Positions 1 to 41,214 of a stretch of 41,214 nucleotides of DNA are shown piece by piece. The notes under the pieces are model-generated. The model was not told the origin of the DNA and did no database searches. It was given only the letters and a program-made list of their open reading frames with translations. The first letter of the stretch is position 1, and each line of letters starts with the position of its first letter. A program made the translations under genes and the position numbers. This DNA comes from a virus (taxonomy: Duplodnaviria; Heunggongvirae; Uroviricota; Caudoviricetes), in IMG/VR virus record IMGVR_UViG_2565956710_000004; one strand, given 5' to 3'.

Positions 1-1143
1 CTATGCTGTTTTCATATCTACGATAACCCAGTCTTTACCACGATCATCATTGTATCGGTCGGTCATTTTTCTGGATTTATGACCTAACAACTTTTGCGTA
101 TCCAGACCCTGTTTCCGATATAACCGTTCTGACAGAGATCGCTGCTCATGAAATGTGGGCGCAGTTCCTTGCTCCCATTTTATGCCACATTTTTCCCTGG
201 CCTTTTTAAAAGCCGTTGTCAGAGTATTTGCAGAAACCTGGTCTCCTCTGTTTGCTTGAGAGGTTGTGTGACGGTAATGGACCAGATATTTACTAACAAC
301 AGCATCCCTGCACTGAGATATAACTTCACGAAGGGTAATATTCAGAGCATCGCATTTCAGGTTAAGCGGAATAGCAAGTTTTGAACCGGTTTTTTCCTGA
401 GTAATGTGCAACATGTCGTCCCAGATATCAGAGAATTTCAAATTGCAGATATCGCCTAAACGTTGTCCAGTGACAAGAGCAAGTAGCATCCCGCATTTTA
501 AATAGGGCTGCCGTCTGCTTACGCTGTCAAATATTGCCTGCCATTCGGGCAGTGATAATCTTTGGCGGTTTACTCGATTTCGCGGTTGTTTTGTTGCCTG
601 CGCTGGGTTAAATCCTGGCGGAACATGTCCTGCGTGTTGTGCTTCTTTGAAGACGTCGATCAACACCATTCTCACGACTTGCGCCATCCTGTTATGACCT
701 TCAGCCTTTACAGCATCAATTATTTCGGCAATATCAAGTGCGGTAATATCCTTGAGGTGTTGCATTCCACAATGCTCACGGAAAAGACGAATGGGTTTGC
801 CTTTTTGCCGATAGGAGTTGGGTCTTAGTTCATTATGTTGCAGCCTGTCCTCCTGGATAGAAATATATTTATCAAGCCATTCTGTCACCGTAATGTCTGA
901 GCGCCTGCCTTTCATTCTTTCTAGACGCTCATTGACGCTTAATATTTGTCGGGTACGTTGTTCAGCAATAATGGTATTTGCTTCAGTAGCAACTTGTTTT
1001 GCTTCATTCTCATCAGTTCCTAAGCTATGAAAACGACCGGATAGTGGATGTTTGTATTGCCAATATACCTTTCCGGTTCGCTTATCTAATTTGCAATATA
1101 AATTGGGTATAGAGATTTTGTGAGATCGGGGTCTAGCAGCCAT
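1..1143 (-). CDS. int: Tyrosine integrase (lambda Int family), complete
   Basis: 380-aa ORF, ATG at 1141-1143, stop TAG at 1-3. C-terminal catalytic region resembles lambda Int (HxxR in ...TFHEQRSLSERLY..., catalytic Tyr in ...MTDRYNDDRG...). N-terminal domain differs from lambda Int, so att specificity is probably different. First gene of prophage left arm. Confidence 0.9.
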   Translation of the reverse strand: MAARPRSHKISIPNLYCKLDKRTGKVYWQYKHPLSGRFHSLGTDENEAKQVATEANTIIAEQRTRQILSVNERLERMKGRRSDITVTEWLDKYISIQEDRLQHNELRPNSYRQKGKPIRLFREHCGMQHLKDITALDIAEIIDAVKAEGHNRMAQVVRMVLIDVFKEAQHAGHVPPGFNPAQATKQPRNRVNRQRLSLPEWQAIFDSVSRRQPYLKCGMLLALVTGQRLGDICNLKFSDIWDDMLHITQEKTGSKLAIPLNLKCDALNITLREVISQCRDAVVSKYLVHYRHTTSQANRGDQVSANTLTTAFKKAREKCGIKWEQGTAPTFHEQRSLSERLYRKQGLDTQKLLGHKSRKMTDRYNDDRGKDWVIVDMKTA

Positions 1144-1369
1144 CAGCGATTATCCGTTGGAGTTTTGGGTTTGCGTTTATTGGGAGTTGCGGTTCTGCAA
1201 GCGTTCCTACAAAACGGGAATTTCGGTCAATCATCCAGTAGCGACCAACTTTTATAGCGGGTGGGGCCATCATTTTCCCTTGCGCGTATTTTTTCAGAAC
1301 TCGCTCACTTGGTGCTAAGTCCCCAAATTCTTCTTTAGCCCAGTCCTGTAAAGTGATTAGTCGAGACAT
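1133..1369 (-). CDS. xis: Excisionase (lambda Xis-like winged helix)
   Basis: 78 aa, ATG at 1367-1369 preceded by GGAGGA; overlaps int start by 11 nt as in lambda. Motifs ITLQDW and MAPPAIKVGRYWMI parallel lambda Xis LTLQEW and IFPPPVKDGREYLF. Confidence 0.7.
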   Translation of the reverse strand: MSRLITLQDWAKEEFGDLAPSERVLKKYAQGKMMAPPAIKVGRYWMIDRNSRFVGTLAEPQLPINANPKLQRIIADGC

Positions 1370-1508
1370 TTGTCCTCCTCTTAGCTGCTGAGGGAGTTTG
1401 TGACCGATATATCTGACATGATATTAAGCTCATGGCAGGTACATCTCTTGACTGGTCATAGAGATAAATTTAATGCTGAGAAATGCAGTATTGAATTTAT
1501 CAATTTTT

Positions 1509-1748
1509 CTATTTCCTGCGTATGGCACGTAACTTCTTAATGTGTTCTGCCGTTTCGATCTCTTCTGCTATCCGATCTGCATCAGCTTTATTCACAGGTT
1601 CAAAGTCATGATTAAAGCGGAACATGCTGGCGATACATGTTCTGCCTTTTCGGATGTAGTGAACTTTGTTGTGGGTAGAACGCAGGATTTTGCAGGGAGT
1701 GCCGTGGTGGTCGACGTACCAGGTGTTAGGAAAAATGATTCTGAACAT
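1509..1748 (-). CDS. Hypothetical small early-left protein
   Basis: 79-aa ORF with ATG start and GAGGTG Shine-Dalgarno; same strand and orientation as the pL operon. No recognisable motif. Confidence 0.4.
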   Translation of the reverse strand: MFRIIFPNTWYVDHHGTPCKILRSTHNKVHYIRKGRTCIASMFRFNHDFEPVNKADADRIAEEIETAEHIKKLRAIRRK

Positions 1749-1794
1749 TTTTACACCTCAGTTGGCGATGTTGAAATTTGCTGCTTTGAGGCCA

Positions 1795-2013
1795 TCACAA
1801 TCCCCATTGTTTGTTCTTAAGTTCGATTTCCTCCTGGCAACTGGCGCAAGTCCGACAACCCTGAACGGCCAGTCGTCTTCGTTCATCTATCGGATCGCCA
1901 CACTCACAACAATGAGTGGCAGATATAGCCTGGTGGTTCAGGCGGCGCATTTTTATTGCTGTATTGCGCTGTAATTCTTCGATTTCTGATGCTGAATCAA
2001 TGATGTCTGCCAT
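1795..2013 (-). CDS. DksA/TraR-type C4 zinc-finger protein
   Basis: 72 aa containing CxxC-(17 aa)-CxxC (CCECGDPIDERRRLAVQGCRTCASCQ), the C4 zinc-finger arrangement of the TraR/DksA family common in prophage early regions. Confidence 0.6.
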   Translation of the reverse strand: MADIIDSASEIEELQRNTAIKMRRLNHQAISATHCCECGDPIDERRRLAVQGCRTCASCQEEIELKNKQWGL

Positions 2014-2111
2014 CTTTCATTAATCCCTGAATTGTTGGTTAATACGCTTGAGGGTGAATGCGAACAATAAAAAAGGAGCCTGTAGCTCCCTGATGATTTT
2101 GCTTTTCATGT

Positions 2112-2327
2112 TCACCGTTCCTTAAAGGCGCCGTTTAACATACCGATTGCCAGACTTAAATGAGTCGGTGTGAATCTCATCAGCGTTACCGTTTCGCGGT
2201 GCTTCTTCAGTACGCTACGGCAAATGTCATCGACGTTTTTATCCGGAAACTGCTGTCTGTTTTTTTTGATTTCAGCATTAGCCTGACGGGCAATGCTGCG
2301 AAGGGCGTTTTCTTGCTGAGGTGTCAT
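2112..2327 (-). CDS. Hypothetical protein (71 aa from internal ATG)
   Basis: ORF in pL orientation; the start MTPQQENAL at ATG 2325-2327 is preferred over the longer 93-aa form in the track. Position corresponds to the small orf cluster between xis and exo in lambda. Confidence 0.35.
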   Translation of the reverse strand: MTPQQENALRSIARQANAEIKKNRQQFPDKNVDDICRSVLKKHRETVTLMRFTPTHLSLAIGMLNGAFKER

Positions 2328-2403
2328 TGAACAAGTCCCATGTCGGCAAGCATAAGCACACAGAATATGAAGCCCGCTGCCAGAAAAATGCATTCCGTGG
2401 TTG

Positions 2404-2595
2404 TCATATCAGCTCTTTCTCGTCTGCTTCTGCTTTCGCCGCCATCATTTCGAGCTTTTGTGAAAGGGATGCGGCTAACGTATGAAATTCTTCGTCTGTT
2501 TCTGCTGGTATTGGCACAAACCTGACTCCAATATGAGCGAGGCTATGTGCCATCTCGATACTCGTTCTTAACTCAACAGGAGATGCTTTGTGCAT
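2404..2595 (-). CDS. Hypothetical small acidic protein (lambda orf63 position)
   Basis: 63-aa ORF, ATG start with G-rich SD; same size and position as lambda orf63 just downstream of orf60a/exo. Confidence 0.4.
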   Translation of the reverse strand: MHKASPVELRTSIEMAHSLAHIGVRFVPIPAETDEEFHTLAASLSQKLEMMAAKAEADEKELI

Positions 2596-2750
2596 ACAGC
2601 CCCCCGTTTATTATTTATATCCTCAGCCAGCCGCTGTGCTTTCAGTGGATTTCTGATAACAGAAAGGCCAGGAAATACCCAGCCTCGCTTTGTAACGGAG
2701 TAGACGAAAGTGATCGCACCTACCCGGATATTATCGTGAGGATGCTTCAT
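2568..2750 (-). CDS. Hypothetical protein translationally coupled to exo (lambda orf60a position)
   Basis: ATG at 2748-2750 overlaps the exo stop (2747-2749) in an ATGA arrangement on the minus strand; 60 aa. Lambda orf60a overlaps exo the same way. Confidence 0.4.
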
Positions 2751-3427
2751 CGCCATTGCTCCCCAAATACAAAACCAATTTCAGCCAGTGCCTCGTCCAT
2801 TTTTTCGATGAACTCCGGCACCATCTCGTCAAAACTCGCCATGTACTTTTCATCCCGCTCAACCACGACATAATGCAGGCCTTCACGCTTCATACGCGGG
2901 TCATAGTTGGCAAAGTACCAGGCATCTTTTCGCGTCACCCACATGCTGTACTGCACCTGGGCCATGTAAGCCGACTTTATGGCCTCGAAACCACCGAGCC
3001 GGAACTTGATGAAATCCCGGGAGGTAAACGGGCATTTCAGCTCAAGGCCGTTGCCGTCACTGCATAAACCATCCGGAGAGCAGGCGGTACGCATACTTTC
3101 GTCGCGATAGATGATCGGGGATTCAGTAACATTCACGCCGGAAGTGAACTCAAACAGGGTTCTGGCGTCGTTCTCGTACTGTTTTCCCCAGTCCAGCGCC
3201 TTAGCATTAACTTCCGGAGCCACACCGGTGCAAACCTCAGCCAGCAGGGTGTGGAAGTAGGACATTTTCATGTCAGGCCACTTCGTTCCTGATCGGGGTT
3301 TTGCTATTACGTTGTGAACTTCTGAAGCTGTGATGACGCCGAGCCGTAATTTGTGCCACGCATCATCTCCCTGCTCGATAGCTCTCACGTCGATCCCGGT
3401 ACGCTGCAGGATAATGTCCGGTGTCAT
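2747..3427 (-). CDS. exo: Lambda exonuclease (Red alpha)
   Basis: 226 aa; sequence [44 protein letters not shown]... is essentially identical to recalled lambda Exo over its full length. Confidence 0.95.
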
Positions 3428-4209
3428 GCTGCCACCTTCTGTTCAGTGGCTTTTTGTTTCAGGAATCCAAGAGCTTTCACTGCTTCGTCCTGTGTCAGTT
3501 CTGACGATGCACGAATGTCGCGGCGAAATATCTGGGAACAGAGCGGCAATAAGTCGTCATCCCATGTTTTATCCAGGGCGATCAGCAGAGTGTTAATCTC
3601 CTGCATGGTTTCATCGTTAACCGGAGTGATGTCGCGTTCCGGCTGACGTTCTGCAGTGTATGCGGTATTTTCGACAATGCGCTCGGCTTCATCCTTGTCA
3701 TAGATACCAGCAAATCCGAAGGCCAGACGGGCACACTGAATCATAGCTTTATGCCGTAACATCCGTTTGGGATGCGACTGCCACGGTCCGGTGATTTCTC
3801 TGCCTTCGCGAGTTTTGAATGGTTCGCGGCGGCATTCATCCATCCATTCGGTAACGCAGATCGGATGATTACGGTCCTTGCGGTAAATCCGGCATGTACA
3901 GGATTCATTGTCCTGCTCAAAGTCCATGCCATCAAACTGCTGGTTTTCATTGATGATGCGGGACCAGCCATCAACGCCCACCACCGGAACGATGCCGTTC
4001 TGCTTATCAGGGAAGGCGTAAATTTCTTTCGTCCACGGATTAAGGCCGTACTGGTTGGCGACGATCAACAATGCGATGAACTGCGCATCGCTGGCATCAC
4101 CTTTAAATGCCGTCTGGCGAAGAGTGGTGATCAGTTCCTGTGGGTCGACAGAATCCATGCCGACACGTTCAGCCAGCTTCCCTGCCAGCGTTGCGAGTGC
4201 TGTACTCAT
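3424..4209 (-). CDS. bet: Red beta single-strand annealing protein
   Basis: 261 aa; [66 protein letters not shown]... matches lambda Bet; 4-nt overlap with exo as in lambda. Confidence 0.95.
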
Positions 4210-4214
4210 CCGTT

Positions 4215-4511
4215 TTATACCTCTGAATCAATATCAACCTGGTGGTGAGCAATGGTTTCAACCATGTACCGGATGTGTTCTGCCATGCGCTCCTGAAACT
4301 CAACATCGTCATCAAACGCACGGGTAATGGCTTTTTTGCTGGCCCCGCAGCGTTGCAAATGATCGATGCAGAGCGATTCAAACAAATGCTGGGGCAGACC
4401 CTTTTCCAGGTCGTCTGCCAGTTCTGCCTCTTTCTCTTCACGGGCGATCTGCTGGTAGTGACGCGCCCAGCTCTGAGCCTCAAGACGATCCTGAATGTAA
4501 TAAGCGTTCAT
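4215..4511 (-). CDS. gam: Gam (RecBCD inhibitor), short GamS-length form
   Basis: 98 aa [21 protein letters not shown]...[10 protein letters not shown] matches the C-terminal 98 aa of lambda Gam. Upstream in-frame sequence still reads ...FRSSAM like lambda but hits an in-frame TAA at 4566-4568, so the 138-aa long form cannot be made. Confidence 0.9.
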
Positions 4512-4586
4512 GGCTGAACTCCTGAAAATGGCTGTGAAACTATTGCCCGGGAAATGCCAGGCTGATTAGGAAAACAGGAAAGGGGG

Positions 4587-4877
4587 TTAGTGATTCAGGC
4601 CGTTGCCGCGTCCGTCGAGAAAAATTTCCACGAGCAAGTCACGGGTATAAGTGCGCTCGATGCCGCGATGCAGATAAAGCCGTCCGCGTAGATTAGCTGA
4701 TGCAGTCCAGGTACCATCTTTGTGTTTGACCAGCATTCCTGGCATGACCGCACCGCGATTAACGGTCTGCGTTCCGTAATGTTGATGAACCATAAAAACT
4801 CCTGCCCGTAAGCTGGGCTGCTGAACATATAGAGACTTCTGCGCGTATTCAGGCGGTGGATGGCCGCCGGTTGTCAT
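4587..4877 (-). CDS. Hypothetical protein, first ORF downstream of putative pL (96 aa from ATG)
   Basis: Frame-0 minus-strand ORF; the track form starts at a TTG (4995-4997) with no SD, so the ATG at 4875-4877 (GAGG about 10 nt upstream) is preferred. No similarity I can recognise to N, Kil or CIII. Confidence 0.3.
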   Translation of the reverse strand: MTTGGHPPPEYAQKSLYVQQPSLRAGVFMVHQHYGTQTVNRGAVMPGMLVKHKDGTWTASANLRGRLYLHRGIERTYTRDLLVEIFLDGRGNGLNH

Positions 4878-5049
4878 AACTAAGCCGCCTCGTTGAAGCG
4901 ACTGAGGTATGAGGTGTTGAGTTGATTTCAGCTGGTCACACCGACGTTCACGCGTCCGCTTCACCCCTCGCACTCCCCGGAGCCTGCTGAAATTCAAGCT
5001 GCGGATCTAAGCGGTCATCGCAACGGTGAATCAGGTGGTTGCCGTATGA

Positions 5050-5150
5050 TTGTGTTGTTGCGATGAACTTATTTAAAACTATAGTTGTTTTATCGTCAAC
5101 AACATAAGTTGTTTTACTGGTTGTTTTAGATATAACTGGTTGTATTTGGG
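5050..5150 (-). promoter_or_regulatory. Putative OL/pL operator-promoter region
   Basis: Cluster of GTTGTT / AACAAC hexamers (GTTGTT at 5054, 5084, 5108, 5120; AACAAC at 5098), including inverted repeats GTTGTT-N8-AACAAC and AACAAC-ATAA-GTTGTT. The same half-site forms the inverted repeat TGGTTGTT-N7-AACAACCA in the cI/cro intergenic region. Lies between the cassette terminator and the leftward early genes, where OL is expected. Confidence 0.35.
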
Positions 5151-5240
5151 ATGGATTTATTTTGTGACTTGAATCGCATAGCGATAACTGAAGCGAGGTT
5201 GTGGTGGTTTTTTGAACGGTGTGTGTGATGAGGGGAGGGG

Positions 5241-5270
5241 CAAAAGAAAACCCGGCACGGTGGCCGGGTT
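5241..5270 (-). terminator. Rho-independent terminator (bidirectional hairpin) ending the cI-linked cassette
   Basis: Perfect 6-bp GC-rich stem CCCGGC(5251-5256)/GCCGGG(5263-5268), extendable by two A-T pairs, 6-nt loop, T-rich tracts on both sides; 5 nt after the stop of the 316-aa gene. Analogous in position to lambda tIMM after rexB. Confidence 0.6.
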
Positions 5271-18914: not shown

Positions 18915-18926
18915 GGGCGGCGACCT
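18915..18926 (+). other. cosN cohesive-end site (12-nt GGGCGGCGACCT)
   Basis: Exact lambda cohesive-end sequence, preceded by the lambda right-end sequence ...CGATCCAACAGGTTACG and followed by a cosB-like region up to Nu1 (19104), about 189 bp upstream of Nu1 as in lambda. Confidence 0.85.
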
Positions 18927-19649: not shown

Positions 19650-23330
<3,681 letters not shown>

Positions 23331-23350
<20 letters not shown>

Positions 23351-24662
23351 TCTCCCGCATATTGCCAGCATGGCCTTTAATGAGCCGCTGATGCTTGAAC
23401 CCGCCTATGCGCGGGTTTTCTTTTGTGCGCTTGCAGGCCAGCTTGGGATCAGCCGCCTGACGGATGCGGTGTCCGGCGACAGCCTGACTGCCCAGGAGGC
23501 ACTTGCGACGCTGGCATTATCCGGTGATGATGACGGACCACGACAGGCCCGCAGTTATCAGGTCATGAACGGCATCGCCGTGCTGCCGGTGTCCGGCACG
23601 CTGGTCAGCCGGACGCGGGCGCTGCAGCCGTACTCGGGGATGACCGGTTACAACGGCATTATCGCCCGTCTGCAACAGGCTGCCAGCGACCCGATGGTGG
23701 ACGGCATTCTGCTCGATATGGACACGCCAGGCGGAATGGTGGCGGGAGCATTTGACTGCGCTGACATCATCGCCCGTGTGCGTGACATAAAGCCGGTATG
23801 GGCGCTGGCCAACGACATGAACTGCAGTGCAGGTCAACTGCTTGCCAGCGCCGCCTCCCGACGTCTGGTCACGCAGACCGCCCGGACAGGCTCCATCGGC
23901 GTCATGATGGCTCACAGTAATTACGGCACTGCGCTGGAGAAACAGGGCGTGGAAATCACGCTGATTTACAGCGGCAGCCATAAGGTGGATGGCAACCCCT
24001 ACAGCCATCTACCGGATGATGTCCGGGAAACACTGCAGTCCCGGATGGATGCAACCCGCCGGATGTTTGCGCAGAAGGTGTCGGCATATACCGGCCTGTC
24101 CGTGCAGGCTGTGCTGGATACCGAGGCAGCAGTGTACAGCGGTCAGGAGGCCATTGATGCCGGACTGGCTGATGAACTTGTTAACAGCACCGATGCGATC
24201 ACCGTCATGCGTGAGGCACTGGATGCACGTAAATCCCGTCTCTCAGGAGGGCGAATGACCAAAGAGACTCAATCAACAACTGTTTCAGCCACTGCTTCGC
24301 AGGCTGACGTTACTGACGTGGTGCCAGCGACGGAGGGCGAAAACGCCAGCGCGGCGCAGCCGGACGTGAACGCGCAGATCACCGCAGCGGTTGCGGCAGA
24401 AAACAGCCGCATTATGGGGATCCTCAACTGTGAGGAGGCTCACGGACGCGAAGAACAGGCGCGCGTTCTGGCAGAAACCCCCGGAATGACCGTGGAAACG
24501 GCCCGCCGCATTCTGGCTGCAGCACCACAGAGTGCACAGGCGCGCAGTGACACTGCGCTGGATCGTCTGATGCAGGGTGCACCGGCACCGCTGGCTGCAG
24601 GTAACCTGGCATCTGATACCAATAAAGAATTACTTAATACACCTGAAGCTTTACCGGTATAA
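23331..24662 (+). CDS. C: Head maturation protease / scaffold C
   Basis: GTG 23331 start giving MTAELRNLPHIASMAFNEPLMLEPAYARVFF... (lambda gpC); 20-nt overlap with B as in lambda. The track ORF start at 23217 is an upstream extension. Confidence 0.9.
24045..24662 (+). CDS. nu3: Scaffolding protein Nu3 (in-frame internal start within C)
   Basis: In-frame ATG 24045 (MDATRRMFAQK...) at the same offset (714 nt) from the C start as lambda Nu3. Confidence 0.6.
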   Translation: MDATRRMFAQKVSAYTGLSVQAVLDTEAAVYSGQEAIDAGLADELVNSTDAITVMREALDARKSRLSGGRMTKETQSTTVSATASQADVTDVVPATEGENASAAQPDVNAQITAAVAAENSRIMGILNCEEAHGREEQARVLAETPGMTVETARRILAAAPQSAQARSDTALDRLMQGAPAPLAAGNLASDTNKELLNTPEALPV

Positions 24663-24671
24663 GAGGCAGTT

Positions 24672-25004
24672 ATGGCGACAAAAGAAGAGTTTAACCATTA
24701 CCAGCCGCTGGGTAACAGTGATCCGGCTCATACAGCAATTGCGCCTGGCGGATTGAGTGCGAAAACGCCTGCAATGACCCCGCTGATGCTGGATGGCACT
24801 ACCCGTAAGCTGGTTGTGTGGGATGGCACCACCGACGGTGCAGCCGTTGGCATTCTGGCGGTTGCTGCTGACCAGACCAGCACCACACTGACGTTCTACA
24901 AGTCCGGCTCGTTCCGTTATGAGGATGTGCTCTGGCCGGAGGCTGCCAGCGACGAGACTAAAAAACGGACCGCGTTTGCCGGAACGGCAATCAGCATCGT
25001 TTAA
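24672..25004 (+). CDS. D: Head decoration protein D
   Basis: 110 aa ...[33 protein letters not shown]...[10 protein letters not shown], lambda gpD. Confidence 0.95.
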
Positions 25005-25021
25005 TCTTCCCCTTCATCAAC

Positions 25022-25047
25022 AAAGGCCGCCTGTGCGGCTTTTTTTA
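25022..25047 (+). terminator. Hairpin with T-run between D and E (partial terminator/attenuator)
   Basis: Stem GGCCGC / GCGGC flanked by AAA and TTTTTTT (AAAGGCCGCCTGTGCGGCTTTTTTT). Confidence 0.4.
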
Positions 25048-25059
25048 TGGAAATAATTT

Positions 25060-26085
25060 ATGTCTGTATATACAACCGCAGAATTACTGGCATCGACCCA
25101 GCATCACTTTAAGTTCGATCCGCTGTTTCTGCGCCTGTTTTTCCGTGAAACCTATCCTTTCACCACGGAAAAAGTCTATCTCTCACAAATTCCGGGACTG
25201 GTAAACATGGCGCTGTACGTTTCGCCGATTGTTTCCGGTGAGGTTATCCGATCCCGTGGCGGCTCCACCTCTGAATTTACGCCGGGTTATGTCAAACCCA
25301 AGCATGAGGTGAATCCGCAGATGACCCTGCGTCGCCTGCCGGATGAAGATCCGCAGAACCTGGCTGACCCGGCTTACCGTCGTCGCCGTATTATTCGGCA
25401 GAATATGCTGGATGAAAATCTGGCGATTGCCCAGGTCGAAGAGATGCAGGCAGTTTCTGCCGTGCTTAAGGGCAAATATACCATGACCGGTGAAGCCTTC
25501 GATCCGGTTGAGGTGGATATGGGCCGCAGTGAGGCGAATAACATCACGCAGTCCGGCGGCACGGAGTGGAGCAAGCGTGACAAGTCCACGTATGACCCGA
25601 CCGACGATATCGAAGCCTACGCGCTGAACGCCAGCGGTGTGGTGAATATCATCGTGTTTGATCCGAAAGGCTGGGCGCTGTTCCGTTCCTTCAAAGCCGT
25701 CAAGGAGAAGCTGGATACCCGTCGCGGCTCTCATTCCGAGCTGGAGACAGCGGTAAAAGACTTGGGCAAAGCGGTGTCCTATAAGGGAATGTATGGCGAT
25801 GTGGCCATCGTCGTGTATTCCGGACAGTACGTGGAAAACGGCGTCAAAAAGAACTTCCTGCCGGACAACACGATGGTGCTGGGGAACACTCAGGCTCGCG
25901 GTCTGCGCACCTATGGCTGCATTCAGGATGCGGACGCACAGCGCGAAGGCATTAACGCCTCTGCCCGTTACCCGAAAAACTGGGTGACCACCGGCGATCC
26001 GGCGCGTGAGTTCACCATGATTCAGTCAGCACCGCTGATGCTGCTGGCTGATCCTGATGAGTTCGTGTCCGTACAACTGGCGTAA
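25060..26085 (+). CDS. E: Major capsid protein E
   Basis: 341 aa, lambda gpE. Confidence 0.95.
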   Translation: MSVYTTAELLASTQHHFKFDPLFLRLFFRETYPFTTEKVYLSQIPGLVNMALYVSPIVSGEVIRSRGGSTSEFTPGYVKPKHEVNPQMTLRRLPDEDPQNLADPAYRRRRIIRQNMLDENLAIAQVEEMQAVSAVLKGKYTMTGEAFDPVEVDMGRSEANNITQSGGTEWSKRDKSTYDPTDDIEAYALNASGVVNIIVFDPKGWALFRSFKAVKEKLDTRRGSHSELETAVKDLGKAVSYKGMYGDVAIVVYSGQYVENGVKKNFLPDNTMVLGNTQARGLRTYGCIQDADAQREGINASARYPKNWVTTGDPAREFTMIQSAPLMLLADPDEFVSVQLA

Positions 26086-34425: not shown

Positions 34426-37400
34426 ATGGGTAAAGGCAGCAGTAAGGGGCATACCCCGCGCGAAGCGAAGGACAACCTGAAATCATCCCAGATGCTGAGC
34501 GTGATAGACGCCATCAGTGAAGGGCCGATTGAAGGTCCGGTGGACGGATTAAAAAGTGTGCTGCTGAACAGTACGCCAGTGCTGGACAGTGAGGGGAATA
34601 CCAATATCTCCGGTGTCACGGTGGTTTTCCGGGCAGGTGAGCAGGAGCAGACACCGCCGGAGGGATTTGAATCCTCCGGCTCCGAGACGGTGCTGGGTAC
34701 GGAAGTGAAGTACGACACGCCGATTACCCGGACCATCACGTCTGCAAACATCGACCGTCTGCGCTTTACCTTCGGTGTGCAGGCACTGGTGGAAACCACC
34801 TCAAAGGGGGACCGGAATCCGTCGGAAGTCCGCCTGCTGGTTCAGATACAGCGTAACGGTGGCTGGGTGACGGAAAAAGACATCACCATTAAAGGCAAAA
34901 CCACCTCACAGTATCTGGCCTCGGTGGTGGTGGGTAACCTGCCGCCGCGCCCGTTCAATATCCGGATGCGCAGGATGACGCCGGACAGCACCACAGACCA
35001 GCTGCAGAACAAAACGCTCTGGTCGTCATACACCGAAATCATCGATGTGAAACAGTGCTACCCGAACACGGCACTGGTCGGCGTACAGGTGGATTCGGAG
35101 CAGTTCGGCAGCCAGCAGGTGAGCCGTAATTATCATCTGCGCGGGCGTATTCTGCAGGTGCCGTCGAACTATAACCCGCAGACGCGGCAATACAGCGGTA
35201 TCTGGGACGGAACGTTTAAGCCAGCATACAGCAATAACATGGCCTGGTGTCTGTGGGATATGCTGACCCATCCACGCTACGGCATGGGGAAACGTCTTGG
35301 TGCGGCGGATGTGGACAAATGGGCGCTGTATGTCATCGGCCAGTACTGCGACCAGTCAGTGCCGGACGGCTTTGGCGGCACGGAGCCGCGCATCACCTGT
35401 AATGCGTACCTGACCACACAGCGCAAGGCGTGGGATGTGCTCAGTGATTTCTGCTCGGCGATGCGCTGTATGCCGGTATGGAACGGGCAGACGCTGACGT
35501 TCGTGCAGGACCGACCGTCGGATAAGGTGTGGACCTATAACCGCAGTAATGTGGTGATGCCGGATGATGGCGCGCCGTTCCGCTACAGTTTCAGCGCCCT
35601 GAAAGACCGCCATAATGCCGTTGAGGTGAACTGGATTGACCCGAACAACGGCTGGGAGACGGCGACAGAGCTTGTGGAGGATACGCAGGCCATTGCCCGT
35701 TACGGTCGTAACGTCACGAAGATGGATGCTTTTGGCTGTACCAGCCGGGGGCAGGCACACCGCGCCGGGCTGTGGCTGATTAAAACAGAACTGCTGGAAA
35801 CGCAGACCGTGGACTTCTGCGTGGGCGCAGAAGGGCTTCGCCATGTGCCGGGCGATGTCATTGAAATCTGTGATGATGACTATGCCGGTATCAGCATCGG
35901 CGGGCGCGTGCTGGCGGTAAACAGCCAGACCCGGACGCTGACGCTCGACCGTGAAATCACGCTGCCATCCTCCGGTACCACGCTGATAAGCCTGGTTGAC
36001 GGAAGTGGCAATCCGATCAGCGTGGAGGTTCAGTCCGTCACCGACGGCGTGAAGGTGAAAGTGAGCCGTGTTCCTGACGGTGTTGCTGAATACAGCGTGT
36101 GGGGGCTGAAGCTGCCGACGCTGCGCCAGCGCCTGTTCCGCTGCGTGAGTATCCGTGAGAACGACGACGGCACGTATGCCATCACCGCCGTGCAGCATGT
36201 ACCGGAAAAAGAGGCCATCGTGGATAACGGGGCGTACTTTGACGGCGACCAGAGCGGCACGGTGAATGGTGTCACGCCGCCAGCGGTGCAGCACCTGACC
36301 GCCGAAGTCACCGCAGACAGCGGGGAATATCAGGTGCTGGCGCGCTGGGACACGCCGAAGGTGGTGAAGGGCGTGAGCTTCCTGCTCCGTCTGACCGTAA
36401 CAGCGGATGACGGCAGTGAGCGGCTGGTCAGCACGGCCCGGACGACGGAAACCACATACCGCTTCAGGCAACTGGCGCTGGGGAACTACAGGCTGACAGT
36501 CCGGGCGGTAAATGCGTGGGGGCAGCAGGGCGATCCGGCGTCGGTATCGTTCCGGATTGCCGCACCGGCAGCACCGTCGAGGATTGAGCTGACGCCGGGC
36601 TATTTTCAGATAACCGCCACGCCGCATCTTGCCGTTTATGACCCGACGGTACAGTTTGAGTTCTGGTTCTCGGAAAAGCGGATTACCGATATCAGGCAGG
36701 TTGAAACCACAGCCCGCTATCTTGGTACGGCGCTGTACTGGATAGCCGCCAGTATCAATATCAAACCGGGCCATGATTATTACTTTTATATCCGCAGTGT
36801 GAACACCGTTGGCAAATCGGCATTCGTGGAGGCCGTCGGTCGGGCGAGCGATGATGCGGAAGGTTACCTGGATTTTTTCAAAGGCAAGATAACCGAATCC
36901 CATCTCGGCAAGGAGCTGCTGGAAAAAGTCGAGCTGACGGAGGATAACGCCAGCAGACTGGAGGAGTTTTCGAAAGAGTGGAAGGACGCCAACGATAAGT
37001 GGAATGCCATGTGGGGCGTCAAAATTGAGCAGACCAAAGACGGCAAACATTATGTCGCGGGTATTGGCCTCAGCATGGAGGACACGGAGGAAGGCAAACT
37101 GAGTCAGTTTCTGGTTGCCGCTAACCGTATCGCATTTATTGACCCGGCAAACGGGAATGAAACGCCGATGTTTGTGGCGCAGGGCAATCAGATATTCATG
37201 AACGACGTGTTCCTGAAGCGCCTGACGGCCCCCACCATTACCAGTGGTGGCAGTCCTCCGGTATTTTCCCTGACATCAGACGGAAAGCTGACCGCTAAAA
37301 ATGCGGATATCAGTGGCAGTGTGAATGCGAACGCCGGGACGCTCAACAATGTCACGGTAAATGAAAACTGTACGATTAAGGGCATGCTGGAGGCGACTCA

Positions 37401-37839
37401 GGTCAGAGGTGACTTCGTTAAAGCTGTATCCAAATCATTTCCGAAACAGGCTGGTACGTGGGGTAACACGGAAACACCAAACGGGACGGTTACAGTCACC
37501 ATCAGCGATGATCATAACTTTGACCGTCAAATCATTATTCCGCCCATTATCTTTAACGGAATAGCGTATAGCGATCCGGGAAGTGGTAATAACCCGGGAG
37601 GTACAAGATACACGGGTTATGGTTTTGAAGTTCGCAAAAACGGTGTATTAATCGCATCCAGAGAAACTAAAGGGGCCATTCCCGGTAGCTACAGTGCGGT
37701 TATTGATATGCCGAGTGGCAGGGGAAGCGTCACTCTGGAGTTTAAGGTTTTCCATAAAGGCAATCAGTGGGCAGGTAATATCACCGACTGTACGGTGATT
37801 GTGACCAAAAAAGCCGCTTCCGGCATCAGTATTCGTTGA
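34426..37839 (+). CDS. J: Tail tip attachment protein J (central tail fibre) with divergent C-terminal receptor-binding domain
   Basis: 1137 aa; residues 1 to about 980 track lambda gpJ closely ([20 protein letters not shown]...), while the last about 150 aa are homologous in outline but substantially substituted. Confidence 0.9.
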
Positions 37840-37860
37840 AATTGTTATAACCCATATAAG

Positions 37861-37884
37861 GGCACCAGAAATGGTGCCTTTTTT
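37861..37884 (+). terminator. Rho-independent terminator after J
   Basis: Stem GGCACC / GGTGCC, loop AGAAAT, then TTTTTTATT. Confidence 0.6.
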
Positions 37885-37908: not shown

Positions 37909-38508
37909 ATGCGTAAACTTTATGCCGCCATTTTGTCCGCAGCCATTTGTCTGGCCGTATCCGGTGCGCCTGCATGGGCATCTGAACATCAGTCCACGCT
38001 GAGCGCGGGGTATCTTCATGCCTCGACGAACGTTCCCGGCAGCGATGATCTTAACGGGATTAACGTGAAATACCGTTATGAGTTTACGGACACACTGGGG
38101 CTGGTGACGTCATTCAGCTATGCAGGAGACAAGAATCGCCAGCTTACCCGTTACAGCGATACCCGCTGGCATGAAGATTCCGTGCGTAACCGCTGGTTCA
38201 GCGTGATGGTGGGGCCGTCTGTGCGCGTGAATGAATGGTTCAGCGCGTATGCGATGGCGGGTATGGCTTACAGCCGTGTGTCGACTTTCTCCGGGGATTA
38301 TCTCCGCGTAACTGACAACAAGGGGAAAACGCACGACGTGCTGACCGGAAGTGATGACGGTCGCCACAGCAACACGTCTCTGGCGTGGGGAGCTGGCGTG
38401 CAGTTTAACCCGACCGAATCCGTGGCCATTGATATTGCTTATGAAGGCTCCGGCAGTGGCGACTGGCGCACTGACGGTTTCATCGTGGGTGTCGGTTATA
38501 AGTTCTGA
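37909..38508 (+). CDS. lom: Lom outer-membrane protein (Ail/Lom family)
   Basis: 199 aa with signal peptide; C-terminal ...[27 protein letters not shown] is identical to the lambda Lom C-terminus; interior diverged. Confidence 0.85.
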
Positions 38509-38532: not shown

Positions 38533-38560
38533 ACAGCCCGCCGGTTCAGGCGGGCTTTTT
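38533..38560 (+). terminator. Rho-independent terminator after lom
   Basis: Stem AGCCCGCC / GGCGGGCT, loop GGTTCA, followed by TTTTTT. Confidence 0.7.
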
Positions 38561-38572
38561 TGTGGGGTGAAT

Positions 38573-40633
38573 ATGGCAGTAAAGATTTCAGGTGTACTGA
38601 AAGACGGCACAGGAAAACCGGTACAGAACTGCACAATCCAGCTGAAAGCAAAACGTAACAGCACCACAGTTGTGGTGAACACGGTGGCCTCAGAAAATCC
38701 GGATGAAGCCGGACGTTACAGCATGGATGTTGAGTATGGCCAGTACAGCGTCGCCCTGCTGGTTGAAGGTTTTCCGCCTTCACATGCCGGGACCATCACC
38801 GTGTATGAGGATTCTAAGCCGGGGACATTGAATGATTTTCTGGGCGCTGCAACAGAAGATGATGTTTGTCCGGAGGCACTGTATCGTTTTGAAAAGATGG
38901 TGGAAGAGGCGGCACGCAACGCTGAAGCCGCCTCTCAGAGCGCAGCGGCAGCAAAGAAATCAGAAACAGCAGCGGCATCGTCCAGGAACGCGGCGAAAAC
39001 ATCAGAGACGAATGCAGGTAACAGCGCGAAAGCGGCAGCTTCTTCAAAAACAGCCGCACAAAACGCAGCAACAGCGGCAGAACGTTCAGAGACAAATGCC
39101 CGTGCGTCAGAAGAAGCCTCCGCAGACAGTGAAGAGGCTTCCCGCCGTAATGCAGAGTCAGCCGCTGAAAATGCCGGAGTCGCCACCACAAAAGCGCGGG
39201 AGGCCGCAGCAGACGCAACAAAGGCCGGGCAGAAAAAGGATGAGGCTCTGTCGGCAGCGACACGAGCTGAAAAGGCGGCAGACCGCGCAGAAGCCGCAGC
39301 GGAAGTGACTGCAGAGCCCTGTGCGAATATAGTGCCGCCGCTGCCTGATGTGTGGATACCGTTTAACGATTCACTGGATATGATTGCGGGTTTTTCTCCG
39401 GGCTATAAAAAAATAGCTATTGGTGACGATGTGGTTCAGGTCGCCAGTGATAAACAGGTTAATTTCAGTCGCGCATCAACGGCAACATATATCAACAAAT
39501 CTGGCGAACTGAAAACGGCGGAAATTAATGAGCCGCGATTTGAGTGTGATGGCCTGCTTATTGAGGGACAAAGAACGAACTACATGCTCAATTCGGAAAG
39601 TCCAGCCAGCTGGGGGAAGTCATCAAACATGGATGTGCCCGAAACCGGGACGGATAGTTTTGGTTTTACTTATGGAAAGTTTGTCTGCAACGATTCTCTG
39701 GTTGGGCAAACTTCGGCTATTAATATGGCATCAATTGCTGCAACAAAGTCAGTTGATGTCTCAGGCGATAACAAGTACGTGACAACCTCATGCCGTTTTA
39801 AAACAGAACGACAGGTAAGGTTACGTATACGGTTTGATAAGTATGATGGTAGTGCAACAACTTTTCTTGGCGATGCGTACATTGATACGCAAACGCTTGA
39901 AATTAGTATGACAGGTGGTGCTGCCGGCAGAATTACGGCACGAGTCAGGAAGGATAAGACCACGGGCTGGATTTTTGCAGAGGCAACGATTCAGGCAATT
40001 GATGGTGAGTTAAAAATAGGCTCTCAGATACAGTATTCTCCTGGGCAGGGTGGGGCAACAGTATCTGGTGACTATATTTATCTTGCCACCCCACAAGTAG
40101 AGAATGGGCCGTGTGTATCATCATTTATTATTTCAGGAGGCAGCGCAACGACAAGAGCCAGTGATTTGGTTAGTATCCCCACCAGAAATAATCTTTATAA
40201 GTTACCATTTACTTTTTTACTTGAGATTCATAAAAACTGGGATATTGCACCAAACGCCGCACCCCGCGTGTGGGATATAGCAGCAGCCAATACCGGGCAA
40301 TCAGCAATTGCAGCAATCAACAGAGGTAGTGGTAAGTTATATATGAGTCTGTCAAACCCTTCAGGCTCGTATGTTAATAGCGCAGCGACAGATGTATTTG
40401 CAGAGAAAACCACATTTGGATGTATTGCAAAAGCTGATGGTCACTTTCATGTGGTGACAAATGGTAAAGCGGTTAATGAAGTTTATTGTGAATATAATGG
40501 CGTGACCGCTGATAAAAATATCCGATTTGGAGGGCAGACGAATACTGGAGAACGACATCTGTTTGGCCATATTCGCAATTTCCGCATATGGCATAAAGAA
40601 TTAAATGACAGGCAATTAAAAGAGGTCGTATGA
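38573..40633 (+). CDS. stf: Side tail fibre protein Stf (lambda-like N-terminus, different distal domain)
   Basis: N-terminal about 100 aa MAVKISGVLKDGTGKPVQNCTIQLKAKRNSTTVVVNTVASENPDEAGRYSMDVEYGQYSV... match lambda Stf; then an Ala/Ser/Glu-rich low-complexity shaft and an unrelated C-terminal about 380 aa. Confidence 0.8.
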   Translation: MAVKISGVLKDGTGKPVQNCTIQLKAKRNSTTVVVNTVASENPDEAGRYSMDVEYGQYSVALLVEGFPPSHAGTITVYEDSKPGTLNDFLGAATEDDVCPEALYRFEKMVEEAARNAEAASQSAAAAKKSETAAASSRNAAKTSETNAGNSAKAAASSKTAAQNAATAAERSETNARASEEASADSEEASRRNAESAAENAGVATTKAREAAADATKAGQKKDEALSAATRAEKAADRAEAAAEVTAEPCANIVPPLPDVWIPFNDSLDMIAGFSPGYKKIAIGDDVVQVASDKQVNFSRASTATYINKSGELKTAEINEPRFECDGLLIEGQRTNYMLNSESPASWGKSSNMDVPETGTDSFGFTYGKFVCNDSLVGQTSAINMASIAATKSVDVSGDNKYVTTSCRFKTERQVRLRIRFDKYDGSATTFLGDAYIDTQTLEISMTGGAAGRITARVRKDKTTGWIFAEATIQAIDGELKIGSQIQYSPGQGGATVSGDYIYLATPQVENGPCVSSFIISGGSATTRASDLVSIPTRNNLYKLPFTFLLEIHKNWDIAPNAAPRVWDIAAANTGQSAIAAINRGSGKLYMSLSNPSGSYVNSAATDVFAEKTTFGCIAKADGHFHVVTNGKAVNEVYCEYNGVTADKNIRFGGQTNTGERHLFGHIRNFRIWHKELNDRQLKEVV

Positions 40634-40908
40634 AAGATTTAACTTTGAAGTTTCATGACAAACTGCAGTTTAAGGCCTTCCTGTCATCTCTTGGCTGGGC
40701 GGAAGATGAAGACCTCCAGAATAAACTGTTAGTTGATGAAATTGGTTTCACCTACACAGAAACAGGGGTAACAGAAGAGGGAGAACCTGTCTGTATCCGG
40801 AATGATGGTTATTTTGTCAACATTCGCATTCTTGATGACTTGTTTGATGTTTCTGTATTCTCTGATTATGTCGTGGAGCTGGAAACACCGCTTCGGGAAT
40901 GGAGCTGA
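40630..40908 (+). CDS. Hypothetical protein translationally coupled to stf (possible tail-fibre accessory/assembly factor)
   Basis: ATG 40630 overlaps the stf stop (ATGA); 92 aa, acidic. Occupies the tfa slot but is shorter than and unlike lambda Tfa. Confidence 0.4.
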   Translation: MKDLTLKFHDKLQFKAFLSSLGWAEDEDLQNKLLVDEIGFTYTETGVTEEGEPVCIRNDGYFVNIRILDDLFDVSVFSDYVVELETPLREWS

Positions 40909-40920
40909 AAGGAGGAAATA

Positions 40921-41214
40921 ATGGATATAAGCCCCTTACTTCATGCACTTTGTGCTGTGGCTGCGCAGATACTGGTTGGTCTTTTTACCGGAAACTGGGC
41001 TTACGGAGCGATAGCCGGTTGTACGTTCTTCATTGCGCGTGAACATACCCAGGCAGAATATCGCTGGATTGAAATGTTCGGGCATGGCAAGCGAATGAAT
41101 ATGCCGTGGTGGGGCGGTTTTGATCCGCGAGCTTGGGATGTGGCAAGCCTGATGGATTTTGCTGTGCCGGTGGTGGCGTGTCTGCTGGTCTGGCTGTTGG
41201 TTAATCGTGGGTGA
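40921..41214 (+). CDS. Hypothetical small membrane protein (2 predicted TM segments)
   Basis: Strong SD AAAGGAGG 5-12 nt upstream of ATG 40921; 97 aa with hydrophobic segments at both ends (LLHALCAVAAQILVGLFTG..., ...FAVPVVACLLVWLLV); in the b-region downstream of tail fibres. Confidence 0.4.
   Translation: MDISPLLHALCAVAAQILVGLFTGNWAYGAIAGCTFFIAREHTQAEYRWIEMFGHGKRMNMPWWGGFDPRAWDVASLMDFAVPVVACLLVWLLVNRG

Follow-up and report, generated by a model that had tools for sequence, protein, structure and literature searches.

What forms the tip of a lambdoid side tail fiber that keeps the lambda anchor and not the lambda distal half, and what does the small gene coupled to its 3′ end contribute? 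The question is raised by positions 38573–40908 of IMG/VR virus record IMGVR_UViG_2565956710_000004, a stretch of 41,214 nucleotides (the window) that represents a lambdoid prophage in integrated order and in which stf, the side tail fiber gene, overlaps a gene for a 92-amino-acid (92-aa) protein. It is well supported, from sequence comparison, that the 92-aa gene and the stretch of stf encoding the distal fiber have been exchanged as one module. Modular exchange of fiber tips is textbook knowledge, and the locus itself is no novelty, being of an ordinary kind among lambdoid prophages and represented already in public phage genomes. Of the 92-aa partner protein and its strict tie to this tip type, we found no description in the literature and databases searched. 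The features on which the argument draws are as follows.

38573–40633, + strand: stf, side tail fiber, 686 aa plus stop (open reading frame [ORF] list, sequence)
38573–38965, + strand: lambda-type N-terminal tail-attachment domain, residues 1–131 (PF08400)
38966–39334, + strand: Ala/Glu/Ser-rich shaft, residues ~132–254 (composition, repeat-type resemblance to the shaft of lambda Stf)
39335–40192, + strand: junction motif PLPDVWIPFNDSLDM and domain D1, residues 255–540 (NF048003, Rcc01080 homology)
40193–40630, + strand: domain D2, residues 541–686, weakly concanavalin A/LamG-like (sub-threshold PF13385, C-terminal motif)
40620–40625, + strand: Shine-Dalgarno-like AAGAGG for the 92-aa gene, within the stf 3′ end (sequence)
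40630–40908, + strand: 92-aa protein gene, ATGA-coupled to stf (ORF list, phrog_1361 match)
39338–40908, + strand: low-GC exchange cassette, distal fiber module plus 92-aa gene, ~1.57 kb (guanine–cytosine [GC] profile)

Base composition sets the module apart from its surroundings. GC content is 0.55 across the N-terminal domain and shaft and 0.44 across residues 255–686; the 92-aa gene has 0.42, and the next gene, for a 97-aa protein, 0.53. Along the profile, the shaft runs at ~0.55–0.63; values fall from ~0.6 to ~0.42 at ~39340, a point that coincides with the junction motif, and recover at ~40910, where the 92-aa gene ends. The shared low GC thus makes the distal module and the 92-aa gene one compositionally foreign block. 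Where other prophages carry recombinant alleles, the breakpoints fall within the cassette or at its edges; in Lambda_2G7a DNA, only codons ~337–650 are replaced, and the last ~36 stf codons stay in place together with the genes for the 92-aa and 97-aa proteins.

The two elements are also found together well beyond this prophage. By tblastn, 92-aa homologues occurred in 191 phage records and tip homologues in 228; in the records common to both sampled tables, the small ORF lay 0–20 nt downstream of the tip on the same strand in every case, and it also directly followed the tip in 2G7b, KarlJaspers, and ev243, which were sampled only from the fiber search. Among 88 loci with a 92-aa homologue, 80 of them on IMG/VR contigs and the others in phage records, the ORF directly upstream carried the D1–D2 module in all 88, a few being cut by an insertion sequence (IS) element or the contig end, and the 4-nt overlap between stf and the 92-aa gene was kept in nearly all. 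A scan of species-representative genomes returned only Escherichia loci and one probably contaminated contig of a metagenome-assembled genome.

The pair occurs in lambdoid prophages, Drexlerviridae, Dhillonvirus, Nonagvirus (JenP1), T5-like phages (IrisVonRoten, AKFV33, HMD-P3), and rV5-like myoviruses (O157 typing phage 4), and the N-terminal anchors ahead of it include PF08400, PF12571, and PF03406 domains as well as T5-like and rV5-like fibers. Because the pair stands behind such varied anchors, the partner of the 92-aa protein would be the distal module rather than tail attachment. In HMD-P3, whose tip is 28% identical, the downstream 101-aa ORF matches the 92-aa profile (hhalign 97.8%, E 8e-13). 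The fiber of Aeromonas phage 14AhydR10PP aligns across the whole D1–D2 scaffold (99.7%, E 4e-26), and an overlapping 101-aa ORF is a 92-aa homologue (95.6%, E 1e-8). Within the genus Vequintavirus, rV5 (NC_011041 33509–38017, locus L095) has neither the module nor the small gene at its gp41/gp40 locus, whereas O157 typing phage 4 (locus L007) has both at the end of its large fiber gene. An earlier sequence-only reading of this DNA had proposed modular exchange of the tip together with its downstream gene, and the single low-GC block, the linkage in 88 of 88 loci, the several anchors, and the comparison of rV5 with typing phage 4 all bear this out.

The proximal part of the fiber is lambda-like. 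PF08400, the prophage tail fiber N-terminal domain of Pfam, matches residues 1–131 (E 6e-68); residues 1–94 match the lambda tail fiber chain in PDB 9e7m (E 6e-51); and residues 1–158 are 75% identical to lambda orf-401 by BLASTP, the first ~95 being near-identical. Past residue 158, similarity to orf-401 is compositional and repeat-type and lies in the shaft; over residues 111–254, Ala accounts for 37%, Glu for 13%, and Ser for 11%. The retained lambda anchor and Ala/Ser-rich shaft of the sequence-only reading therefore stand, with Glu as a further major shaft residue. Its swapped C-terminal region is indeed unrelated to lambda orf-314, the distal Stf half (best BLASTP E 5.6; tblastn over the whole window E > 1), but begins at about residue 255–262 and spans ~430 aa, not ~380. 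Its Stf length of 688 aa is explained by an in-frame GTG at 38567; from the ATG at 38573 (MAVKISGVL..., where lambda Stf also starts) to the TGA at 40631–40633, the product has 686 aa. The ATGA coupling that it described is present at 40630–40633, and the 92-aa protein is, as it had claimed, unlike lambda Tfa: BLASTP between the two gives zero alignments.

A conventional tail fiber chaperone is not evident nearby. We found no Tfa homologue anywhere in the window, and none is annotated in the complete genome of the close relative Perceval; Peptidase_S74 (PF13884) is absent from Stf by a Pfam scan that does detect it in the second-fiber proteins of 2G7b and KarlJaspers. Set against lambda Stf/Tfa, the locus shares the PF08400 anchor, the Ala/Ser-rich shaft, the position after J and lom, and a small acidic protein gene tightly coupled to the stf 3′ end. 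It differs in its distal ~430 aa, unrelated to orf-314, and in a downstream protein of 92 aa (194 aa in lambda Tfa) that lacks the Caudo_TAP domain and has another predicted fold; proteins of the Tfa/Caudo_TAP group (lambda Tfa, P2 G, Mu U, T4 gp38) are ~175–260 aa long. Fibers with S74 domains (T5 Ltf, DT57C LtfA/LtfB) are likewise siphovirus lateral fibers with exchangeable distal modules that assemble without Tfa; unlike them, Stf here has no S74, and any accessory function would come from a separate gene in trans.

Searched for domains, the distal region of Stf returned a gene transfer agent (GTA) head spike fiber domain above cut-off, followed by a weak, sub-threshold LamG-like match. In D1, NCBIfam NF048003 (GTA_spike_fiber) matches residues 329–529 at 56.8 bits against a cut-off of 36, and residues ~297–543 are homologous to Rcc01080, the RcGTA head spike fiber (PDB 6tb9), with E 6e-10 from the single sequence and E 2.9e-17 from a nine-sequence profile. 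RefSeq accordingly names the fiber a "phage head spike fiber domain-containing protein." In D2, Pfam PF13385 (Laminin_G_3) aligns to residues 560–681 at E 3e-5 and 24.6 bits, below its 27.6 cut-off; some close fiber homologues (P0129, P0134) carry a precomputed PF13385 match.

An alignment of diverse homologues resolves the distal region into four conserved scaffold segments separated by two highly variable stretches. The first two segments are the junction PLPDVWIPFNDSLDM and RASTATYINKSG...NEPRFE..GLLIEGQRTN; the third is TPQVE.G..SSFI.TG...TRASD; and the fourth is the C-terminal motif of D2, GGQT.TGERHLFGHIRNFRIWHKEL.D.QL, conserved both in this alignment and in the Aeromonas phage fiber. 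In the window's Stf, conserved sequence lies at residues 258–340, 506–550, and 646–686. A conserved scaffold with variable stretches is the pattern expected for a sandwich-type binding domain with variable loops.

Published work on related fibers gives this assignment a physiological context. The RcGTA head spike fiber binds capsular polysaccharide (PMC10218006); Rcc01080 (GhsB), homologous to D1 of the tip, is nonetheless a 325-aa head appendage anchored by its N terminus on the penton spike, and it has no D2. For Gp22 of IrisVonRoten (BASEL Bas32), an AlphaFold-Multimer model shows a "galectin-like domain" protruding at the C terminus as a possible extra receptor-binding domain (PMC11990801). 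From the homology to the capsule-binding RcGTA fiber and the "galectin-like" prediction for the IrisVonRoten homologue, binding of a surface glycan by the fiber encoded here is a reasonable inference. In AKFV33, the same-tip protein ORF137 was identified in virions by mass spectrometry of four gel bands and ran at 95.8 kDa (PMC3326045); this fiber type is thus a real virion protein, and a large C-terminal cleavage is not apparent.

The 92-aa ORF is evidently a real gene, predicted to encode a cytoplasmic protein. Its coding status follows from cross-lineage conservation of the reading frame, an excess of third-position changes (60 of 103 nucleotide differences between alleles), its own Shine-Dalgarno-like site—at a position where the phage 21 record annotates a ribosome-binding site—and a confidently predicted fold; synonymous codon changes are as frequent as nonsynonymous ones between alleles. 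The product is acidic (isoelectric point 4.2; 10.7 kDa) and lacks a hydrophobic segment (maximum 19-residue Kyte–Doolittle mean 0.83). AlphaFold2, given only 19 sequences, returns a compact beta-alpha-alpha-beta4 fold with a pLDDT (predicted local distance difference test) score of 90.5.

Domain and structure searches bore out the proposal that the protein is unrelated to Tfa, and the only family they yielded was phrog_1361, whose function is unassigned (E 3.2e-42, residues 1–91 of a 92-position profile). Pfam, NCBIfam, PADLOC, and a PDB sequence search gave zero matches, and Foldseek of the model against viral models returned only uncharacterized phage proteins; domain, PDB, and Foldseek searches thus revealed no homology or fold similarity to known fiber chaperones. 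By the tests run, the 92-aa protein is not a Tfa, gp38, gp57A, or S74-type chaperone. Nor does it resemble an antiphage defense or superinfection-exclusion protein, having neither a PADLOC match nor a hydrophobic segment. An exhaustive hidden Markov model (HMM) search of 1.84 billion cluster representatives produced 80 matches, nearly all to stand-alone proteins of ~85–110 aa. The long multi-stretch matches in this search (P0184, P0192, P0212, P0217, P0231) were to PKD or TPR repeat proteins and were discarded as spurious. Two ORFs considered as remote homologues, the upstream 88-aa ORF RcapMu57 and the ORF downstream of the cyanophage S-CAM4 fiber, were rejected, as neither is one.

We compared 51 unique pairs of fiber and 92-aa protein segment by segment to ask whether the small protein matches particular tip alleles. 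In loci L028 and L032, the 92-aa protein is 99% identical to that of the window, with tip variable stretches only 27% and 21% identical; in the Lambda_2G7a group, the corresponding values are 90%, and 25% and 21%. Conversely, the first variable stretch (V1) of L077, L080, and L088 is 92% identical to that of the window, and their 92-aa protein only 62%. Spearman coefficients of 0.44–0.76 between the 92-aa protein and the fiber segments were considered as a sign of specific contact and set aside, as they reflect shared ancestry and linkage and meet these clear counterexamples. The alleles thus do not track the variable regions, which makes the 92-aa protein a generic partner of the module family, and any contact with the fiber must accordingly be with the conserved scaffold. 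The sequence-only reading had called the protein a cognate chaperone; in an allele-specific sense that wording fails on the pairs above, whereas in a generic, non-allele-specific form it is plausible.

The reading that we prefer, and regard as evenly poised between right and wrong, is a mosaic fiber with a lectin-like tip whose 92-aa partner serves as a folding or assembly factor in trans. The N-terminal ~130 residues would dock the fiber on the tail tip as in lambda, and from residue ~255, the fiber ends in a horizontally exchanged, two-domain lectin-like module, for which the most likely ligand, and reversible primary receptor, is a surface glycan (O-antigen, lipopolysaccharide core, or capsule). 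The constant partner of this module is the product of the 92-aa gene, translationally coupled to stf in the genomic slot of lambda Tfa; its most likely site of action, in trans, is the conserved distal scaffold, and it may remain bound to the finished fiber. That the distal module is its target appears almost certain, because the small gene follows the module whatever the anchor, is translated in coupling with it, and occupies the Tfa slot. The assembly role itself is suggested by gene position and linkage; no other assembly factor is evident, given a Stf without S74 and the lack of a Tfa in the window and in the Perceval annotation. We are equally divided over a broader joint claim: that the 92-aa protein represents a new class of fiber accessory, without which the widespread head-spike-fiber/lectin-like module would not assemble or would not work in lambdoid, T1-, T5-, 9g-, and rV5-like and Aeromonas phages and unrelated to the Tfa, gp38, gp57A, and S74 chaperones.

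Several observations weigh against this preferred reading. AlphaFold2 of residues 255–686, from a 20-sequence alignment of 62–88% identity, reached a pLDDT of only 48 and did not confirm a lectin fold. A tagged RcGTA head spike fiber made in E. coli from a single-protein construct still bound cells (PMC10218006), which indicates that the D1 fold has no universal need for a partner. RcapMu and cyanophage S-CAM4, the most distant fiber-domain relatives, have no adjacent 92-aa homologue, and the lack of co-variation between 92-aa alleles and variable tip regions counts on the same side. The literature, including work on phage 21 stf, chimeric Stf, AKFV33, and rV5, yielded no experimental data on the 92-aa protein.

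The same linkage could instead reflect a structural subunit kept on the distal module—as a cap, a stabilizer, or part of the receptor-binding surface—rather than a transient chaperone, a possibility that we consider unlikely but the most serious of the alternatives. T2-type gp38 adhesins and Mu Tfa, which stays on the fiber tip, offer parallels. Strict linkage with translational coupling would favor proportionate synthesis of the two proteins, the small fold is predicted to be stable and compact with high confidence, and RefSeq calls the IrisVonRoten homologue a "tail fiber protein," on a basis that is not stated. A direct role in specificity is, however, argued against by alleles that do not track the variable, presumably receptor-contacting regions of the tip, and we found no virion proteomics that covered a ~10-kDa protein, the AKFV33 study having analyzed four gel bands (PMC3326045). 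The uncoupling of alleles from the variable regions could also be taken to mean that the 92-aa ORF lies outside fiber biology altogether, as a regulator, an antidefense gene, or a moron retained because breakpoints fall beyond it, and none of the libraries searched holds a functional annotation for the protein. This we judge improbable. The 4-nt overlap is kept across lambdoid, T1-, T5-, 9g-, rV5-like, and Aeromonas phages, and conservation across unrelated genomes is hard to reconcile with pure hitchhiking; the flanking genes differ on both sides, the linkage holds down to a fiber identity of ~28%, PADLOC finds no match, and the gene sits within the late structural operon.

Least probable of all is an adaptor role, in which the 92-aa protein would attach a further, branching LtfB-like fiber to the first, the phage in the window having since lost that second fiber. 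A second fiber gene does directly follow the small gene in IrisVonRoten, AKFV33, HMD-P3, JenP1, and the lambdoid 2G7b, and KarlJaspers has a 225-aa protein in the same position; the second fibers of JenP1, IrisVonRoten, AKFV33, 2G7b, and KarlJaspers share the N-terminal motif M.T.T.IP.DI..LK and S74. These loci suggest that a branched-fiber docking system can be added to this fiber type. The small gene is nevertheless kept without a second fiber in 84 of 84 lambdoid loci examined, and the same second-fiber N terminus occurs in DT571/2, phiKT-like, and Wifcevirus phages, and on these two grounds we largely reject the adaptor. In DT57C-type phages, moreover, ltfA and ltfB are described as adjacent, and the docking site has been assigned to an LtfA shaft region related to phiEco32 gp14 (PMC4728585, PMC10713586). 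The second-fiber genes were located at L004 6289–8013, L008 4580–6253, L009 4593–5648, L090 4084–5121, and L091 4047–4724, loci of T5-like, 9g-like, and T1-like phages and one lambdoid phage; Peptidase_S74 was found in both of the second-fiber proteins that were Pfam-scanned.

The closest known relatives carry the locus almost unchanged. Over 38573–40908, Perceval (OV696612, PERCE_22/23) is 100% identical and phage 21 (OL657228, CPT_21_22/23) 98.5% identical; both have the order stf, 92-aa gene, 97-aa membrane protein gene, and both annotate the first two as a side tail fiber and a hypothetical protein. Phage 21 differs from the window in having no lom and another J allele. In IrisVonRoten, the C-terminal 432 aa of Gp22, the T5-like lateral tail fiber proximal protein, are 52% identical to the tip, and the fiber stop codon is overlapped by the gene for a 92-aa homologue with 50% identity. 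Gp22 differs in its T5-type anchor and in having a proposed docking partner, the T-shaped second fiber Gp24, encoded after the small gene; no second fiber is encoded in the window. Related sequence occurs in 1,714 of 5,426 complete E. coli genomes, and at least 80% of the cassette is present in 452. As to whether the C-terminal region might be a common variant with a conventional Tfa encoded elsewhere, it is common, being present in hundreds of E. coli genomes, but no Tfa is found in the window.

The consequences reach beyond this prophage. Side and lateral fibers govern passage of the O-antigen or capsule layer and are for this reason swapped in host-range engineering, for example in lambda-based delivery particles with chimeric Stf. 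The tip module is among the commonest in E. coli prophages and recurs in virulent phage families used as models and therapeutics. Should the tip need the 92-aa protein in order to fold or work, chimeric fibers with this module must include it, and fiber accessory factors would then comprise a third type in addition to intramolecular chaperones and the Tfa-like proteins; should it not be needed, its strict conservation would be left without explanation.

Some genomes carry disrupted versions of the locus. In phages 1W (OM475428 18926–23798, locus L003), 3W, 4A7, D2, and Lambda_4C10, an IS66-like three-ORF element lies near the stf 3′ end and cuts the fiber at about residue 643; query bases 1921–1928 are repeated on either side of the element, as an 8-bp target duplication would leave them, and the 92-aa and 97-aa genes are intact downstream. 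Through this truncation of stf, the five phages are natural stf knockouts. The laboratory B strain E. coli T7Express (NZ_CP053594 3026847–3027233, H163) retains of the locus only the last ~130 stf codons and the 92-aa gene, at 88.7% identity; its annotation gives two hypothetical proteins, and the fragment is apparently what remains of a prophage.

Around the cassette, the window follows the lambdoid late-gene plan. Positions 18915–41214 match Perceval 1–22301 at 98.5%, and positions 1–5268 match the int side of Perceval. J (34426–37839) is followed by lom (37909–38508), a hairpin, and three tightly packed genes on the + strand. Two further features complete the map.

38535–38556, + strand: hairpin resembling an intrinsic terminator, followed on the map by stf and preceded by lom, with a T-run (terminator scan)
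40921–41214, + strand: gene for a 97-aa predicted membrane protein with hydrophobic segments, phrog_1443, E 2e-58 (PHROG match, sequence)

The phage 21 record has a terminator annotated at the site equivalent to the hairpin, and by analogy with lambda biology, stf would be transcribed from an antiterminated late transcript that reads past it. A second terminator-like hairpin (37858–37881) follows J, so that lom is bracketed by two, the usual moron-like arrangement in lambdoid phages. The 97-aa gene, whose GC content is backbone-like, is preceded by a strong GGAGG (40911–40915) and directly follows the 92-aa gene in 84 of 84 lambdoid loci with enough downstream sequence; in 2G7b, the second fiber gene is inserted between the two. 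The 97-aa gene probably lies outside the cassette.

The window ends with the stop codon of the 97-aa gene, at its last base, which is also where many prophage calls in IMG/VR stop; the boundary therefore looks like the caller's cut rather than a true attachment site. Beyond the equivalent point, phage 21 (21967–25416; L001) and Perceval (22393–25842; L002) carry sitDCBA on the opposite strand, an iron/manganese ABC transporter operon that forms a moron lying between the attachment site and the fiber region and is not reached by the window. Phage 21 also has a CII-binding-site consensus (ttgynnnnnnttgy) annotated in the stf shaft at 19719–19732 (L001 5486–5499), equivalent to ~39058–39071 on the minus strand of the window and probably a chance match. 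The J product has 1,137 aa in the window and Perceval and 1,160 aa in phage 21 (34426–37839 versus L001 1460–4942); with a different J allele beside the same stf allele, the host-range genes J and stf appear to have assorted independently among close relatives.

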